A DNA stretch of 44,376 bases from positions 1-44,376 of the IMG/VR virus record IMGVR_UViG_2541047881_000004, one strand, 5' to 3'. Each line of letters starts with the position of its first letter. Position 1 is the first letter of the stretch. The notes beneath the pieces are model-generated. The model did no database searches. It had not been told where the DNA came from and saw only the letters and a list, made by a program, of their open reading frames with translations. A program made the position numbers and the translations under genes. The DNA is from a virus (Duplodnaviria; Heunggongvirae; Uroviricota; Caudoviricetes). Of this stretch, positions 6,761 to 32,074 are shown piece after piece.

Positions 6761-9700
6761 TCAGCTGATACTGATGCCTGCGGTGGCTTTCTTCATCACC
6801 ACAACCAGCAAATCGCTGATACTTGCTGTGGGATACCAGCCATTTACCCACCATGCTGATACCGAAAACTCCAGTGTCATTACGCCACTGCCTGCAGGCA
6901 TATCAATAACACCCGTGTAAATCAGAGTATTATCCAGAGCCGTTCGGTTATAAATTTCAGCCCCGTTTTTCTTCACTATCAGGCGGCATGACGAATAAGT
7001 ATCGCTATTCTCCCGTTCATGTCTGGCACCGCTGAAAGCCACCGCTGGAATAACAATTTGCCGGTCAAACGGCTGATCGTCATAAACCCTGACGGTAATG
7101 GTCCCTGATGGCCACCGTTCCGGTGCACGGGAGTCACGGGGGAAAGCTTTGCCCACTGTTTTAACGAGATCGCCTTCAATCTGGTTCGCGGACAGTTTTC
7201 CCAGAACCCGGCAGTTCTCGTTAATCGTGACGTTGTTGAGCGTCCCGGAGTTCGCATTCACGTTACCGCTGATATCGGCATTTTTTGCCGTCAGCCGCCC
7301 GTCCGGTGTCAGGGAAAATGCCGGAGGATTACCGCCGCTGGTAATGGTGGGAGCCGTCAGATATTTCAGGAACACTTCATTCATAAATATCTGATCGCCC
7401 TGACCAACAAACATCGGCTTTGTGTTGCCATTCGCAGGATTAATCATCGCAATCCTGTCCGCCGCCAGCAGCACCTGACTCTGCATACCGTCAGGGGTAT
7501 TCTCAATACCGGCACCAATACCCGCGATATAAAGGCGTCCGTCCTGCATCTGCTGCAGCTTCACAGCCCACATGCTGTTCAGGTTATTATTTGTATCAAC
7601 CTGAACCTTCTGTATCTGCTGAATTGCCGCACTCTGGTCTTCCAGTTTCTTATTGACGGTCTGCGTGATTTCATTGCTGACATCCGTAATGGACGTCCTG
7701 ATTTCAGCCAGGTCAGGCGCAAGCTGACCGTTATCAATCTGCGTCCACAGCTCCTGAGCCAGATGGCTTTTCCCTATCTCTCCTTTGAAAAAATCCAGAT
7801 AGCCGGATGCATCATCACTCGGCTGGCCAACAGCCTCCACAAATGCCGATTTGCCAACGGTGTTCACACTGCGGATGTAAAAATAATAATCATGGCCCGG
7901 TTTGATATTGATACTGGCGGCTATCCAGTACAGCGCCGTGCCAAGATAGCGGGCTGTGGTTTCAACCTGCCTGATATCGGTAATCCGCGTTTCCGAGAAC
8001 CAGAACTCAAACTGTACCGTCGGATCATAAACCGCAAGATGCGGCGTGGCAGTTATCTGAAAATAGCCCGGCGTCAGCTCAATCCGCGACGGCGCTGCCG
8101 GTGCGGCAATCCGGAACGATACCGACGCCGGATCGCCCTGCTGCCCCCACGCATTTACTGCCCGGACTGTCAGCCTGTAGTTCCCCAGCGCCAGTTGCCT
8201 GAAGCGGTATGTGGTTTCCGTCGTCCTGGCCGTGCTGACCAGCCGCTCACTGCCGTCGTCCGCTGCCACGGTCAGACGGAGCAGGAAGCTCACGCCCTTC
8301 ACCACCTTCGGCGTGTCCCAGCGCGCCAGCACCTGGTATTCCCCGCTGTCTGCGGTGACTTCGGCGGTCAGGTGCTGCACCGCTGGCGGCGTGACACCAT
8401 TCACCGTGCCGCTCTGGTCGCCGTCAAAGTGCGCCCCGTTATCCACGATGGCCTCTTTTTCCGGTACATGCTGCACGGCAGTGATGGCATACGTGCCGTC
8501 GTCGTTCTCACGGATACTCACGCAGCGGAACAGGCGCTGGCGCAGCGTCGGCAGCTTCAGCCCCCACACGCTGTATTCAGCAACACCGTCAGGAACACGG
8601 CTCACTTTTACCTTCACGCCGTCGGTGACGGACTGAACCTCCACGCTGACCGGATTGCCACTTCCGTCAACCAGGCTTATCAGCGTGGTACCGGAGGATG
8701 GCAGCGTGATTTCACGGTCGAGCGTCAGCGTCCGGGTCTGGCTGTTCACCGCCAGCACGCGCCCGCCGGTGCTGATACCGGCATAGTCATCATCGCAGAT
8801 TTCAATGACATCGCCCGGCACATGGCGAAGCCCTTCTGCGCCCACGCTGAAATCCACGGTCTGCGTTTCCAGCAGTTCCGTTTTAATCAGCCACAGCCCG
8901 GCGCGGTGTGCCTGCCCCCGGCTGGTACAGCCAAAGGCATCCATCTTCGTAACATTACGACCGTAACGGGCAATGGCCTGCGTATCTTCAACAAGCTCTG
9001 TCGCCGTCTCCCAGCCGTTATCCGGGTCAATCCAGTTCACCTCAACGGCATTATGGCGGTCCTTCAGGGCGCTGAAGCTGTAGCGGAACGGCGCGCCATC
9101 ATCCGGCATCACCACATTACTGCGGTTATAGGTCCACACCTTATCCGACGGTCGGTCCTGCACGAACGTCAGCGTCTGCCCGTTCCATACCGGCATACAG
9201 CGCATCGCCGAGCAGAAATCGCTGAGCACATCCCACGCCTTACGTTGTGTGGTCAGCCAGGCATTACAGGTGATGCGCGGCTCCGTGCCGCCAAAACCGT
9301 CCGGCACCGACTGGTCGCAGTACTGGCCGATGACATACAGCGCCCATTTATCCACATCTGCCGCACCAAGACGTTTCCCCATGCCGTAGCGCGGATGGGT
9401 CAGCATATCCCACAGACACCAGGCCATGTTGTTGCTGTATGCTGGCTTAAACGTTCCATCCCAGATACCGCTGTATTGCCGCGTCTGCGGGTTATAGTTC
9501 GACGGCACCTGCAGAATACGCCCGCGAAGATGATAATTACGGCTCACCTGCTGGCTGCCGAACTGCTCCGAATCCACCTGTACGCCGACCAGTGCCGTGT
9601 TCGGGTAGCACTGTTTCACATCGATGATTTCGGTGTATGACGACCAGAGCGTTTTGTTCTGCAGCTGGTCTGTGGTGCTGTCCGGCGTCATCCTGCGCAT

Positions 9701-27237: not shown

Positions 27238-27299
27238 TGTTCATTCCACGGACAAAAACAGAGAAAGGAAACGACAGAGGCCAAAAAGCCCGTTTTCAG

Positions 27300-27460
27300 C
27301 ACCTGTCGTTTCCTTTCTTTTCAGGGGGTGTTTTAAATAAAAACATTAAGTTACGGCGAAGAAGAACGGAAACGCCTTAAACCGGAAAATTTTCATAAAT
27401 AGCGAAAACCCGCGCGCCTTCCGCCCCGTAACCTGTCGGATCGCCGGAAAGGACCCGCAA
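27300..27460 (-). other. cos packaging site; cosN 12-nt cohesive-end segment at 27415-27426
   Basis: Minus strand reads ...GATCCGACAGGTTACG GGGCGGAAGGCG CGCGGGTTTTCGCTATTTATGAAAATTTTCCGG; flanks match lambda as recalled, the cohesive-end 12-mer differs in its last six bases; lies about 190 nt upstream of Nu1 as in lambda. Confidence 0.8.
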
Positions 27461-27625: not shown

Positions 27626-27859
27626 ATGTCAACGAAGAACAGAACCCGCAGAACAACAACCCGCAACATCCGCTTTCCTAACCAAATGATTGAACAAATT
27701 AACATCGCTCTTGATCAAAAAGGGTCCGGGAATTTCTCAGCCTGGGTCATTGAAGCCTGCCGCCGGAGACTGTGCTCAGAAAAAAGAGTTTCTCCTGAAG
27801 CAAACAAAGAAAAGAGTGACATTACTGAATTGCTCAGAAAACAGATCAGACCAGATTGA
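27626..27859 (+). CDS. Ribbon-helix-helix protein, homologue of the lambda cos-proximal hypothetical gene (recalled as orf-79)
   Basis: 77 aa, MSTKNRTRRTTTRNIRFPNQMIEQINIALDQKGSGNFSAWVIEACRRRL...; near-identical to the lambda right-end ORF as recalled. Confidence 0.8.
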   Translation: MSTKNRTRRTTTRNIRFPNQMIEQINIALDQKGSGNFSAWVIEACRRRLCSEKRVSPEANKEKSDITELLRKQIRPD

Positions 27860-27915
27860 AGCAATTTAGATAATCGTGCAGACTACGCCCCTCATATCAC
27901 ATGGAAGGTACTACA

Positions 27916-28326
27916 ATGGCTCAGGTTGCCATTTTTAAACAAATATTCGATAAAGTGCGAAATAATTTAAACTATCACTGGTTTTATTCTGAACTAAAAC
28001 GTCACAATGTCTCACATTACATTTACTATTTAGCCACAGAGAATATTCATCTTGTTCTTGAAAACGATAATACGGTTTTAATAAAAGGACAGGGTAAGGT
28101 TGTAAATGTAAGATTTTCAAAAAATAAATGCCTTATAGAAGCCACCTTAAAAGGATTCAAATCAGGAGAGTTATCATTTTACGAATACAGGAAAAATCTT
28201 GCTACAGCAGGGGTTTTCAGATGGATTACAAATATCCACGAAAACAAAAGGTATTACTATACCTTTGATAATTCATTACTCTTTACTGAGAACATTCAGA
28301 ACACTACACAAATATTTCCGCACTAA
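27916..28326 (+). CDS. Hypothetical protein of the YbcV family (DUF name recalled as DUF1398), homologue of the lambda cos-proximal gene (recalled as orf-78)
   Basis: 136 aa from ATG 27916 (GGAAGG RBS); AT-rich; lambda-like. Confidence 0.7.
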
Positions 28327-28612
28327 ATCATAACGTCCGGTTTCTTCCGTGCCAGAACCGGACTCGCTGGCATGATGAAATATGTGTACCCGGTAACCCC
28401 GGTGTGCATCGTTTTTGATTATTCCCACACACTCGCGCAGAAGGAGTTCCCCGTCGGGCTACGGTCTCTGTTAATACGGGAATACGGCGACGATACAGCG
28501 CATGATGTGTCAGGCTTGAATACCTTTATCCTTTAAAAGGGATATCAGTTAAGTTATCCCGTGTAGGGTATAAGCCATTATCAAGCCCACCCGTAGATAG
28601 GCTTTGTAATGG

Positions 28613-28870
28613 CTACTTCGCTTTTGCTTCCGCTCGCTTACGCCGGCGCTCTTCTTTCCTCTCGGCTTTTGCCATGTCCATGAATGCCTGCATGATCGAG
28701 TTCCGCATCATGTAGCTAACAAAGTGATGATTGACACAGCCGTTGAGGCGCAGCTGCTCGCCAAACTCGTCCACCGAGGCCAATGCTTCCATCATGCCCT
28801 TCTCGCCTTTCATGAACTCTGAGAAGTCGCGCCCCGCTCTGGAGGCGCATTCAATAACATGATCACTCAT
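28613..28870 (-). CDS. Hypothetical protein (85 aa, basic C-terminal tail)
   Basis: ORF coupled to the upstream KilA-N gene (stop/start overlap); no family recognised. Confidence 0.55.
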   Translation of the reverse strand: MSDHVIECASRAGRDFSEFMKGEKGMMEALASVDEFGEQLRLNGCVNHHFVSYMMRNSIMQAFMDMAKAERKEERRRKRAEAKAK

Positions 28871-29364
28871 CCCGGAAGCCCGGGGATCGTAATCTGCAGC
28901 TGGTTAGCCAGGGAGTTAATCTCAGCGACCAACACTGGCTTCGTATAGCGCCATGCTGCCAGCCCTTGTCCGCAGAAGCTCGCCATGTCTTTCTTCTGGT
29001 CAAACTCATGACATTTCATGTTGAGCTGCGCACTTAAGCTGTTGCGATGCTGAAGTTCTCCGGTGAAGTAGTCATCGAGGACTTTATAGGCCGCGTACTT
29101 GAACCCGGGGTTTAACCAAGCCGCATAATCGTAAGCAACAAACTTCCCGCCATATGTTCCACCGTGTACACCGCGCTCAGTAAAAACCACAGATTCGTGG
29201 TTTTTCTCCAGCTCGGCTAAGAACTCTTTGGTCTGCTTGTTTCGCAGGTAGTGGTAAGGCGATTCAGATTCACTTTTACCACTGGCTTTCCACATATCAG
29301 TGAGGCAGATCATGCCATCTTCACCGATACGAATTGGTTGATTGAAGAGGGTTAATGATTTCAT
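28867..29364 (-). CDS. KilA-N domain protein
   Basis: 165 aa, MKSLTLFNQPIRIGEDGMICLTDMWKASGK... resembles the KilA-N / Bro-N DNA-binding domain; occupies the slot that bor holds in lambda but on the opposite strand. Confidence 0.55.
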   Translation of the reverse strand: MKSLTLFNQPIRIGEDGMICLTDMWKASGKSESESPYHYLRNKQTKEFLAELEKNHESVVFTERGVHGGTYGGKFVAYDYAAWLNPGFKYAAYKVLDDYFTGELQHRNSLSAQLNMKCHEFDQKKDMASFCGQGLAAWRYTKPVLVAEINSLANQLQITIPGLPG

Positions 29365-29479
29365 AGCGTGTACCTACTCTTTGAAATGAACCTTTGCCGC
29401 ACAGGAAACCAGCCCACCGAGGCTCGCCAGCACTAACTGGTATCCTCAAAGGCCCATTCCAAAGGGGCAGGTTCGGTGT

Positions 29480-29534
29480 AAAAAACATGCGTTGCGGTAC
29501 GCATTTATTGCAAAAAGCCCCGCATCGCGAGGCT
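29480..29534 (-). terminator. Two tandem intrinsic terminators downstream of Rz
   Basis: Minus-strand RNA AGCCUCGCGAUGCGGGGCU + UUUUUGC (29511-29534), then AUGCGUACCGCAACGCAU + GUUUUUUAC (29480-29504). Confidence 0.6.
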
Positions 29535-29565
29535 CATTAAATGGACTTTGTGATTTGCAAAAAAA

Positions 29566-30003
29566 TTATTTCAGGCACTGAGTCCTGATGTACTCCTGCA
29601 GGTAGTTAACCTGCGCGGTTATCCTGTCGATTCCACTTCGGAGACGGTAATAATTGAGTTCAGCATCTGCTGTAAGTCTTGGGCTTTCTCCATCGCCCAT
29701 GCCGCTGGCTCCGGTCGTTGGCTTTGCACAGGTGGCGGCGACTTGCAGGCGCTTACGACCAGCAGAAACATCAGCACGGAGACTTTCGATAGTCGCGTTA
29801 GCATCAGCAAGCTCCTTTGTGTATCTGGCGTCGAGTTCTGCTACATCACGTTGACGCTTCTGCATGTCAGCGATGATGTACGTGGCTTTATCGCGCTGGG
29901 TTTTGTAGGTAATGGCGTTATCACGGTAATGATTAACAGCCCATGACAGGCAAACGATGATGCAGATAACCAGAGCGGAGATAATCGCGGTTACTCTGCT
30001 CAT
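29566..30003 (-). CDS. Rz: Spanin, inner-membrane subunit Rz
   Basis: 145 aa; N-terminus [34 protein letters not shown] as lambda Rz, central region divergent. Confidence 0.9.
29619..29810 (-). CDS. Rz1: Spanin, outer-membrane lipoprotein subunit Rz1, embedded in Rz in another frame
   Basis: 63-aa ORF with lipobox LLVVSAC and Pro-rich region, nested within Rz. Confidence 0.75.
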
Positions 30004-30476
30004 ACCTCAATCTCTCTGACCGTTCCGCCTGCTTCTTTGAATTTTGCAATCAGGCTGTCAGCCTTATGCTCGAACTGACCATAACCAGCCCCCGGCAGTG
30101 AAGCCCAGATATTGCTGCAACGGTCGATTGCCTGACGGATATCACCGCGATCAATCATCGGCAAAGCGCCACGCTCTTTAATCTGCTGCAATGCCACAGC
30201 GTCCTGGCTTTTAGGAGAGAAGTCTTTCAGAGCAAGCTGCTTACGGTAGGCATCCCACCAACGGGAAAGAAGCTGGTAACGTCCGGCGGCTGTTGATTTG
30301 AGTTTGGGGTTTAGCGTGACAAGTTTGCGAGGGTGATCGGAGTAATCAGTGAATAGCTCTCCGCCAACAATGACGTCATAACCATGATTTCTGGTTTTCT
30401 GTCGTCCGTTATCAGTCCCCTCTGACCACGCCAGCATATCGAGGAACGCCTTACGTTGATTATTGATTTCCACCAT
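30000..30476 (-). CDS. R: Endolysin R (lytic transglycosylase)
   Basis: 158 aa, [35 protein letters not shown]..., lambda R-like. Confidence 0.95.
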
Positions 30477-30783
30477 CTTCTACTCCGGCTTTTTTAGCAG
30501 CGAAGCGTTTGATAAGCGAACCAATCGAGTCAGTACCGATGTAGCCGATGAACACGCTCGTTATATAAGCGAGATTGCTACTTAGTCCGGCGAGGTCGAG
30601 AAGGTCACGAATGAACCAGGCGATAATGGCGCACATCGTTGCATCGATTACTGTTTTTGTAAACGCACCGCCATTATATCTGCCGCGAAGGTACGCCATT
30701 GCAAACGCAAGGATTGCCCCGATGCCTTGTTCCTTTGCCGCGAGAATGGCAGCTAACAGGTCATGTTTTTCTGGCATCTTCAT
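30460..30783 (-). CDS. S: Holin/antiholin S (dual-start motif Met1-Lys2-Met3)
   Basis: 107 aa, [34 protein letters not shown]..., lambda S-like. Confidence 0.95.
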
Positions 30784-31450: not shown

Positions 31451-32074
31451 CTAACGTGTGACCGCATTCAAAATGTTGTCTGCGATTGACTCTTCCTTGT
31501 GGCATTGCACCACCAGAGCGTCATACAGCGGCTTAACAGTGCGTGACCAGGTGGGTTGAGTAAGGTTTGGGATTAGCATCGTTACAGCGCGATATGCGGC
31601 GCTTGCTGGCATTCTTGAATAGCCGACACCTTTGCATCTTCCGCACTCTTTCTCAACAACTCTCCCCCACTGCTCTGTTTTGGCTATATCAACCGCCCGA
31701 CCTGTACCGTGGCAATCCCTGCATCTTGCGCCCGGCGTCGCGGCACTACGGCAATAATCCGCATAAGCGAATGTTGCGAGCACTTGCAGTACCTTTGCCT
31801 TAGTATTTCCTTCAAGCTTTGCCACACCACGGTATTTCCCCGATACCTTGTGTGCAAATTGCATCAGATAGTTGATAGCCTTTTGTTTGTCGTTCTGGCT
31901 GAGTTCATGCTTACCGCAGAATGCAGCCATCCCGAATCCGGCCTGTGATTGTGCCATCCCCATAGCAGCCATCACATCAGTACCGGAAAGAGAGTCAGAA
32001 GCCGTAGCCCGTGGTGAGTCGCTCATCATCGGGCTTTTTGGCGAATGAAATTTAGCTACGCTTTCGAGTCTCAT
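31451..32074 (-). CDS. Q: Late gene antiterminator Q (lambda type)
   Basis: 207 aa, MRLESVAKFHSPKSPMMSDSPRATASDSLSGTDVMAAMG..., matches lambda Q as recalled. Confidence 0.95.
   Translation of the reverse strand: MRLESVAKFHSPKSPMMSDSPRATASDSLSGTDVMAAMGMAQSQAGFGMAAFCGKHELSQNDKQKAINYLMQFAHKVSGKYRGVAKLEGNTKAKVLQVLATFAYADYCRSAATPGARCRDCHGTGRAVDIAKTEQWGRVVEKECGRCKGVGYSRMPASAAYRAVTMLIPNLTQPTWSRTVKPLYDALVVQCHKEESIADNILNAVTR

Follow-up and report, generated by a model that had tools for sequence, protein, structure and literature searches.

What replaces bor in a lambda-like phage when the interval between Rz and the cos-proximal genes carries other genes, and under what control would the replacement be expressed? 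The question is raised by a 44,376-nucleotide (nt) stretch of caudovirus DNA (IMG/VR record IMGVR_UViG_2541047881_000004, analysed over its whole length and hereafter called the window), which comes from a lambda-like phage, has the late genes on its minus strand and in which Rz is followed by two open reading frames (ORFs) that encode proteins of 165 and 85 amino acids (aa; ORF165 and ORF85). We read the pair as a dispensable, horizontally shuffled accessory cassette of the lambdoid late operon that belongs to the Bro network (for which a passage of PMC10111431 lists the domains Bro-N, KilA-N, Rha, ANT, AntA, P22_AR, ORF11CD3, T5orf172 and others). The cassette would be transcribed by Q-dependent read-through, restrained by a leader that occludes the Shine-Dalgarno (SD) sequence, and translated into a KilA-N protein and a small partner; to this explanation, taken as a whole, we assign a probability of roughly 55%.

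The exchange itself can be delimited by alignment to lambda. Window positions 31460-29755 correspond to lambda 44500-46235 and positions 28502-27843 to lambda 46868-47527, and since the flanking alignments end there, lambda 46236-46867 (the 3' end of Rz plus bor at 46459-46752) has been swapped for window 29754-28503. From Q to mid-Rz, a segment that takes in the Q-S intergenic region, identity to lambda is 93%, and homology restarts at the DUF1398 gene (lambda p78). As tblastn gave no significant Bor match anywhere in the window, the replacement of bor by two late-strand ORFs, proposed in an earlier sequence-only reading of this DNA, is borne out.

Between Rz and ORF165 lie two short hairpins (T1 and H2) and a long leader hairpin (H3; coordinates in Table 1). 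The interval 29365-29480, which the sequence-only reading had singled out for promoter mapping, proved to be a conserved, covarying RNA hairpin that occludes the SD sequence. In its basal helix positions 29472-29467 pair with 29377-29372, ACCUGC being matched to GUAGGU of the SD region, and in the window an 18-bp helix is stacked on a 4-bp helix, with a minimum free energy (MFE) of -48.7 kcal/mol (z = -3.84) that none of 200 dinucleotide shuffles equalled. The window holds one copy of H3. Leaders with 63-79% identity, from the ES18, POCJ13, Enterobacter MII_001, Klebsiella RothD, Leclercia, Scandinavium and Raoultella loci, fold in the same three parts, the SD bases AAAGG being paired with CCUUU; in types other than the window's the helices are more interrupted. 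A degenerate leader pattern matched once per locus and nowhere else, and a stricter one (with CCTTT, TGAG and GGGC fixed) retrieved at least 120 stretches from IMG/VR. Across all loci we count at least 204 leader instances (~80-90 distinct sequences of at least five sequence types), each followed by a start codon after 8-10 nt; averaged over 80 sequences, the SD core is paired with a probability of 0.71.

Covariation was assessed by two tests. In the first, a plain MAFFT alignment of 80 distinct sequences was scored with the structure of a single member other than the window: 87.5% of the cells were paired (37-59% with the partners slid), 163 cells had changed on both sides (at most 60 in the controls), eight pairs carried compensatory changes and the covariation score was 0.254 (at most 0.143), values that none of 500 shuffles reached. 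For the second, a covariance model (CM) built from the MAFFT alignment found 94 leader copies, and the resulting alignment, which leans to the model structure, showed compensatory changes in 19 of 27 pairs and a score of 0.321 (at most 0.106; 0/500 shuffles). Over both tests the paired cells amounted to 87.5-88.9%, versus 35-59% when slid. RNAalifold recovered only the inner helices from the raw MAFFT alignment of the 80 sequences, because in the outer stem the type-A leaders are shifted by one column relative to the other types, a problem that was solved by naming the structure and by the CM alignment. Some divergent copies that are absent from the seed and were found by the CM only run precisely up to a start codon, namely the ATG of HK97 p60, that of the POCJ13 Ant gene (located between R and Rz) or that of a KilA-N gene in Trabulsiella. 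Among the divergent copies are those at L003 2057-2174, L089 3148-3261 and L008 201-312 (locus labels are ours), further ones lie in L157, L127, L186, L047, L056, L118, L123, L159, L180 and L194, and from the copy at L186 1084-1191 both the start codon and the ORF have been lost.

G-U pairs are frequent in the leader (UG in 85 of 90 sequences at one pair; at another, GU alternates with AU and GC). Next to the covarying stems, loop and bulge nucleotides are conserved: most of the CUGUGNG internal loop and of the GGGC side of the apical region persists even in the CM-only copies, which hints at a specific trans-acting partner (an RNase III-like nuclease, or a host or phage protein). Nothing in Rfam 15 overlaps H3 at E values up to 1 in the window and four related loci; the sole nearby match, a weak asX2 on the opposite strand, falls in the T1/H2 region of L089 (32 bits versus a gathering score of 70).

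The genes that follow the leader were grouped into 43 classes and scanned against Pfam. KilA-N was found in 18 classes, Phage_pRha in 17, ORF11CD3 in 12, HNH_3 in five (three with AP2), P63C in two, and P22_AR_N, AntA and T5orf172/MUG113 in one each; among these 43 classes, the leader precedes Bro-network (KilA-N, Rha, Ant-type) or HNH genes only. It lies directly after an Rz homologue in 137 of the 193 evaluable cases, and elsewhere between R and Rz, between tRNAs and the holin, or after tail genes; several contigs hold two cassettes, in places stacked in tandem. In Klebsiella phage RothD (L092, 1300-1985) it precedes an HNH_3+AP2 gene of homing-endonuclease type, with the tRNA genes that follow Q on one side and the holin on the other, and hence the cassette is not tied to the post-Rz slot.

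Such placements would also be expected if the T1-H2-H3 flank and its gene were a selfish mobile cassette, spread among co-infecting lambdoid phages by recombination or homing. An identical leader before HNH_3+AP2 and T5orf172 genes, the tandem stacks and varied late-operon positions, a nearly invariant leader amid varying flanking genes, and the fusion of remote ORF85 relatives to T5orf172/MUG113 (see below) all speak for this possibility. However, Pfam detects no nuclease domain in ORF165 or ORF85, and a shared regulatory element predicts conserved flanks equally; we hold selfish spread to be unlikely as the explanation of the locus, and it is compatible with the cassette reading that we prefer.

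The most direct link to a known gene is with rha of phage P22. Over the 119 nt that precede and take in the ORF165 start (window positions 29478-29360), the identity to the start region of P22 rha is 95%, with the ATGs and SD sequences of both genes aligned in register. P22 rha (orf201) follows gene 15 (Rz), and its annotation puts it in the late operon, with P late and the gene 23 antiterminator upstream; by Pfam its product consists of Phage_pRha and ORF11CD3, as does POCJ13 Rha, and ORF11CD3 recurs in POCJ13 Ant (aa 123-164 of 190). Since Phage_pRha (PF09669) has no Pfam match in ORF165, we consider the latter an analogue, not a member, of the Rha family: judged by its domains and aligned start, ORF165 is a domain-swapped, same-position analogue of P22 rha, in which the N-terminal domain with predicted DNA binding has been exchanged. 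The alignment bears on the annotation of P22 as well, as the annotated GTG start of rha falls 23 codons upstream of the shared ATG, at a point within the conserved leader hairpin at which the window carries a TAG in the same frame (P22 NC_002371 39575-39646 versus window 29433-29365). The shared ATG is hence likely the real start, and P22 Rha probably has 178 aa rather than 201. A passage of PMC4936722 (citing Mozola and Friedman 1985, and Henthorn and Friedman 1995) states that Rha of phi80 and P22, both late-operon products, harm lytic growth if integration host factor (IHF) is lacking. No IHF consensus was found in the cassette, and the single match in the window is at 33462.

The KilA-N assignment of the 165-aa protein made from the letters alone was upheld by the domain search (57.6 bits versus a curated cut-off of 23.8; Table 1), which added ORF11CD3, so that ORF165 unites two Bro-network domains in one protein. 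Its AlphaFold 2 model (predicted local distance difference test, pLDDT, 84.5) has a beta-alpha domain at the N-terminus, in keeping with the APSES-like beta-alpha DNA-binding fold of KilA-N, and, as the model of ORF11CD3, two long antiparallel helices (residues 86-130 and 132-156). NCBIfam holds no family for ORF165 or ORF85, and a PDB sequence search returned nothing for either.

As the Bro network includes Ant, AntA and P22_AR, ORF165 might, together with ORF85, behave as Ant or the Gifsy antirepressors do and both bind and inactivate the repressor that a co-resident prophage or satellite makes. The leader also precedes P22_AR_N and AntA genes, PHROG gives weak matches to 'anti-repressor' families (phrog_20738 and phrog_2127), and RefSeq labels P22 rha 'anti-repressor'. 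Yet the database labels are putative, no ANT, AntA or P22_AR domain is found by Pfam in ORF165 or ORF85, no LexA box (CTGT-N8-ACAG, at most one mismatch) occurs in 28501-29700, and derepression has no obvious use when expression comes late in a committed lytic cycle. We therefore give an antirepressor role little credence.

ORF85 ends in KEERRRKRAEAKAK, as expected from the basic tail already noticed in the sequence, and its model (pLDDT 92.7) comprises three helices, the last one long and basic, for which Foldseek against the PDB returned generic helical bundles only (E above 1). Its PHROG family is without assigned function. The ORF85 family is tiny (137 clusters at 90% identity) and occurs in Enterobacterales only, with two nearly invariant motifs, ECASRAGRDFSEF and GCVNHHF. 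A profile search of 1.8 billion representatives yielded 21 proteins, mainly of the same family or fragments, and the only informative remote relatives among them (P0190 and P0192) have an ORF85-like N-terminal part fused to T5orf172/MUG113; ORF85 therefore belongs to the domain-shuffling Bro network. P22 orf80, considered as a homologue, was rejected for want of any similarity. The tail varies in length by an (AK)n repeat, from AEAKAK in the 85-aa form through AE(AK)2VK up to AE(AK)6VK (window 3' end 28613-28640 and IMG/VR loci), which gives family sizes of 85, 87, 89, 91, 93 and 95 aa.

The pairing of the two genes is strict. A KilA-N gene stands directly upstream of the ORF85-family gene in all 104 evaluable cases (106 members in the fetched loci), and in every one of 80 IMG/VR loci, which were picked through ORF85, ORF165 is immediately upstream with a 4-nt overlap. 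At all related loci the two genes overlap by 4 nt or are separated by 0-2 nt, and the ATGA stop/start overlap in the window agrees with the translational coupling of co-oriented ORFs suggested earlier. The upstream partner is of the KilA-N+ORF11CD3 or the KilA-N+P63C type, the latter being found with an ORF85 homologue in HK97 (p60/p61), Scandinavium, Raoultella and Trabulsiella. Because the KilA-N domains of the two types share only ~23% identity while the ORF85 homologues at the P63C loci remain 53-100% identical to that of the window, we conclude that ORF85 tracks the KilA-N domain and not ORF11CD3. A scan of genome contigs gave only five loci.

Although uncharacterised, the pair is common and has been annotated before. 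The 1.3-kb region has matches in 260 phage records, among them PhiR49_1 (99.4% identity, annotated 'KilA-N-ORF11CD3'), the Stx2 phages 1717 and 2851, ECP1, HK620 and Salmonella P22-like phages, and is matched in 1204 of 5426 complete E. coli genomes (388 at >= 80% coverage), where the genes carry the labels 'KilA-N domain-containing protein' and 'hypothetical protein' of the Prokaryotic Genome Annotation Pipeline. The sequence-only reading had counted a common, conserved late gene with a known structural function as evidence against itself, and this applies in part: the cassette is widespread and occurs in classical phages, although no structural function is known for it. In the 80 IMG/VR loci the pair sits after Rz alleles that are 50-97% identical and before packaging genes of several unrelated types, and since the neighbours on both sides vary around a constant pair, it constitutes a discrete mosaic cassette. 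That it would be dispensable is suggested by lambda, which has bor in the same place.

How the cassette would be reached by RNA polymerase depends on the elements upstream of H3. T1, which is predicted to be strong, has an 8-9 bp GC-rich stem (RNAfold dG -13.7 kcal/mol), and its equivalent is annotated 'terminator' in the phi80, mEp235, HK106, ES18 and Emek records; of 114 distinct upstream sequences, 108 have a terminator-like hairpin with a T-run no more than 110 nt ahead of the leader. H2 is shorter and weaker (6 bp, dG -6.9 kcal/mol), and both are predicted intrinsic terminators, with a GC-rich stem-loop and a U-tract (U5 and U6, respectively). A homologue of H2 (GCGC(A)-loop-GCGC) is present in essentially all relatives, with one compensatory change (U-A in the window versus C-G in P22), whereas the T-run is found mainly in the window's leader type and is absent from P22 and most relatives; we thus regard H2 as a conserved leader element that resembles a terminator in the window. 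Of the two tandem terminators described from the sequence, both hairpins and their T-runs exist, and the second is better understood as part of the leader. A scan for sigma-70-like promoters on the minus strand between Rz and ORF165 (29365-29565) found none, which leaves read-through as the better of the two routes (an own promoter or Q-antiterminated transcription) that had been envisaged.

In lambda and P22, polymerase modified by Q or gp23 ignores intrinsic terminators along the late operon, and in a lysogen the pR' transcripts stop at tR'. The cassette, without a promoter of its own, would be transcribed only by Q-modified RNA polymerase that starts at pR' and reads through T1 and H2. It would be silent in the lysogen and switched on only late in lytic growth, because pR' transcripts stop at tR', T1 and H2 would block stray transcription, and Q-modified polymerase ignores terminators.

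This arrangement bears on the notion that the pair is a moron expressed in the lysogen like bor, from its own promoter in the prophage and to the benefit of the host (e.g., by superinfection exclusion or virulence regulation). The bor slot is a classic moron position, and the upstream terminators could insulate an autonomous unit; but the pair lies on the late strand, the interval from T1 to the ATG contains no promoter-like site and is instead occupied by the covarying hairpin that occludes the SD sequence, and P22 rha, annotated as a gene of the late operon, has the same leader. A moron of this kind appears to us very unlikely.

The same considerations weigh on a defence or toxin-antitoxin pair, in which a KilA-N effector (as BstA or P1 KilA) would be neutralised by ORF85. 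The strict two-gene coupling is what such a pair would show, a passage of PMC8585504 describes BstA as a prophage abortive-infection protein with a KilA-N-like domain, and PADLOC matches ORF165 to the candidate system PDC-S22 through the KilA-N core (E 1.2e-8). This sole PADLOC match, however, covers only ~30 residues, neither BstA nor any other defence-system model was matched by ORF165 or ORF85, a place in the late operon behind terminators and with an occluded SD sequence is the opposite of what lysogen-expressed defence needs, and ORF85 is also found beside KilA-N proteins whose C-terminal domain is another one, so that we judge this alternative highly improbable. Least probable of all is a role of the hairpins at the level of DNA (as a cruciform or recombination boundary) or on the other strand, for although they lie at mosaic junctions and a palindrome covaries whichever strand functions, a sense-strand RNA is favoured by the many G-U pairs (A-C mismatches in DNA or antisense RNA), by the better folding of the sense strand in 62 of 80 sequences and by a 3' end fixed in phase with the SD sequence and ATG, CM-only copies included.

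Returning to the late-operon cassette, we envisage that the leader keeps ORF165 translation low by occluding the ribosome-binding site, and that ORF165 binds DNA as an oligomer, the helical hairpin of ORF11CD3 probably serving oligomerisation. ORF85, made in step through translational coupling, would act as a cofactor or modulator of ORF165, probably on or with the KilA-N domain, and ORF165 would be, like Rha, a non-essential factor aimed at the DNA of the host or of competing elements, not at virion production. More tentatively, T1-H2-H3 may represent an undescribed class of cis-regulatory RNA that gates shuffled KilA-N, Rha, Ant-type and HNH/T5orf172 genes in the late operons of enterobacterial temperate phages, with a trans-acting partner that times translation and ORF85 as a dedicated KilA-N partner; we consider this wider proposal possible, short of probable.

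Several points count against our preferred explanation. The pairing probability of the SD sequence exceeds 0.8 in only 59% of the sequences, and in some leader types (e.g., that of L005) the MFE structure leaves it unpaired; the leader structure may work in another way, for example by being processed, by binding a protein or by stabilising the mRNA. Because the IMG/VR search pattern fixes CCTTT, TGAG and GGGC, their invariance in that set is by construction. Read-through of T1 and H2 and late-only expression are inferred from the biology of lambda and P22, DNA binding by ORF165 and its contact with ORF85 are putative, and the Rha phenotype may not transfer to ORF165, as the N-terminal domain of the latter is KilA-N and not Phage_pRha. 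A literature search found no experiment on ORF165-ORF85 or the leader. It also returned nothing on PhiR49, and Vassallo et al. (2022) do not mention KilA.

Table 1. Positions of the cassette, its upstream hairpins and the neighbouring genes in the window.
Feature	Position	Strand	Details
Q	31451-32074	-	
S	30460-30783	-	
R	30000-30476	-	
Rz	29566-30003	-	
Terminator T1	29512-29535	-	stem AGCCTCGC/GCGGGGCT, loop GAT, T5; just after the Rz stop
Hairpin H2	29480-29504	-	stem ATGCGT/ACGCAT, loop ACCGCA, then G + T6; terminator scan
Leader hairpin H3	29372-29472	-	~100 nt; folding and covariation
ORF165	28867-29364 (stop codon included)	-	KilA-N + ORF11CD3 protein, 165 aa
KilA-N domain	29062-29340	-	aa 9-101; PF04383, E 1.3e-15
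ORF11CD3 domain	28882-29040	-	aa 109-161; Pfam PF10549, E 2.4e-13
ATGA stop/start overlap, ORF165 to ORF85	28867-28870	-	4 nt; sequence
ORF85	28613-28870	-	three-helix protein with basic (AK)n tail; phrog_875
54-aa ORF	28372-28536	+	between ORF85 and the DUF1398 gene
DUF1398/YbcV homologue	27901-28326	+	homologue of lambda p78 (47042-47575)
DUF3950/YlcI homologue	27626-27859	+	

The surroundings of the cassette yielded some further observations. The 54-aa ORF is conserved at ~81-100% aa identity in many related loci, is annotated as hypothetical in PhiR49_1 and has no match in Pfam, NCBIfam or PADLOC. Both RefSeq lambda and phrog_413 label the DUF1398/YbcV homologue 'head protein'; given to an accessory gene that does not lie on the late strand, the label appears to be an inherited mis-annotation. 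Beyond the DUF3950/YlcI homologue follow cos, Nu1 and the terminase gene A; just upstream of Nu1, near cos, a long near-perfect inverted repeat (27257-27323) gave spurious microRNA matches in Rfam, and a terminator-like site was called at 27307-27330 on the plus strand. In PhiR49_1, the closest phage relative, an OmpD-like porin gene (6942-8084) lies between Q and S, the interval that serves as the stx slot of Stx phages, and the Q-S spacer of the window differs from that of PhiR49_1 and is shorter.

To our knowledge, Bro-network proteins (KilA-N, Rha, Bro-N and Ant-like) are among the commonest accessory genes of phages, and almost none has a known role. The gene pair itself is nothing unusual, with copies known from thousands of sequenced prophages. 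Every factual element of what the sequence-only reading observed is confirmed, and its interpretation is supported in part; the second domain of ORF165, the Rha link and the leader had escaped it. What is added is the Rha link, the strict KilA-N/ORF85 pairing and a conserved covarying leader without Rfam family. These observations show that Bro-network genes come in a standard cassette in which both the terminator and the leader, with its occluded ribosome-binding site, are shared, that in it the KilA-N version can substitute for Rha one for one, and that KilA-N genes carry a constant 85-aa partner. For annotation they imply that the P22 rha start is probably placed 23 codons too far upstream and that intergenic 'promoter' space is structured RNA. 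The locus also offers concrete experimental handles, namely the leader, hosts altered in IHF or RNase III, and both proteins together.

Set against known systems, the cassette shares with lambda bor the interval between Rz and the DUF1398 gene, and we found no sequence or functional relation to it: bor is a lipoprotein gene on the opposite strand that is expressed in the lysogen. With BstA, ORF165 has in common an N-terminal KilA-N-type domain in a prophage accessory protein, whereas the traits of BstA as a ~307-aa single protein with its own C-terminal domain, located beside the repressor locus, expressed in the lysogen and containing an internal aba DNA element do not apply to ORF165.

Parallels also exist for the leader. 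Hairpins that occlude the ribosome-binding site precede free-standing or intron homing-endonuclease genes in T4-like phages, and the leader of lambda N is processed by RNase III. These resemble H3 as long hairpins that hide the SD sequence of a potentially harmful accessory gene within a larger transcript; they are unrelated to it in sequence, and H3 differs in having no visible internal late promoter to free the SD sequence. That H3 of the window might itself be an RNase III substrate, to judge by its 18-bp and 4-bp helices, is a guess.

Among phages with the same genes, HK97 resembles the window in having a KilA-N gene (p60) after Rz, an ORF85-family gene (p61) next to it and a diverged copy of the leader upstream; p60 differs in carrying P63C as its C-terminal domain instead of ORF11CD3 and in a KilA-N domain that is ~23% identical, and p61 in a diverged C-terminus. 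HK620 (hkbK/hkbL), the Stx2 phages 1717 and 2851 ('kilA'), PhiR49_1 and ECP1 have the same two genes in the same position at 93-99% DNA identity, with nothing material that differs, their gene names being domain labels. Lastly, P22 has no ORF85 homologue, unlike the window, and the Rha proteins of P22 and phi80 begin with Phage_pRha where ORF165 begins with KilA-N, while the slot directly after Rz, the leader, the ORF11CD3 C-terminus and the similar size are all as in ORF165.

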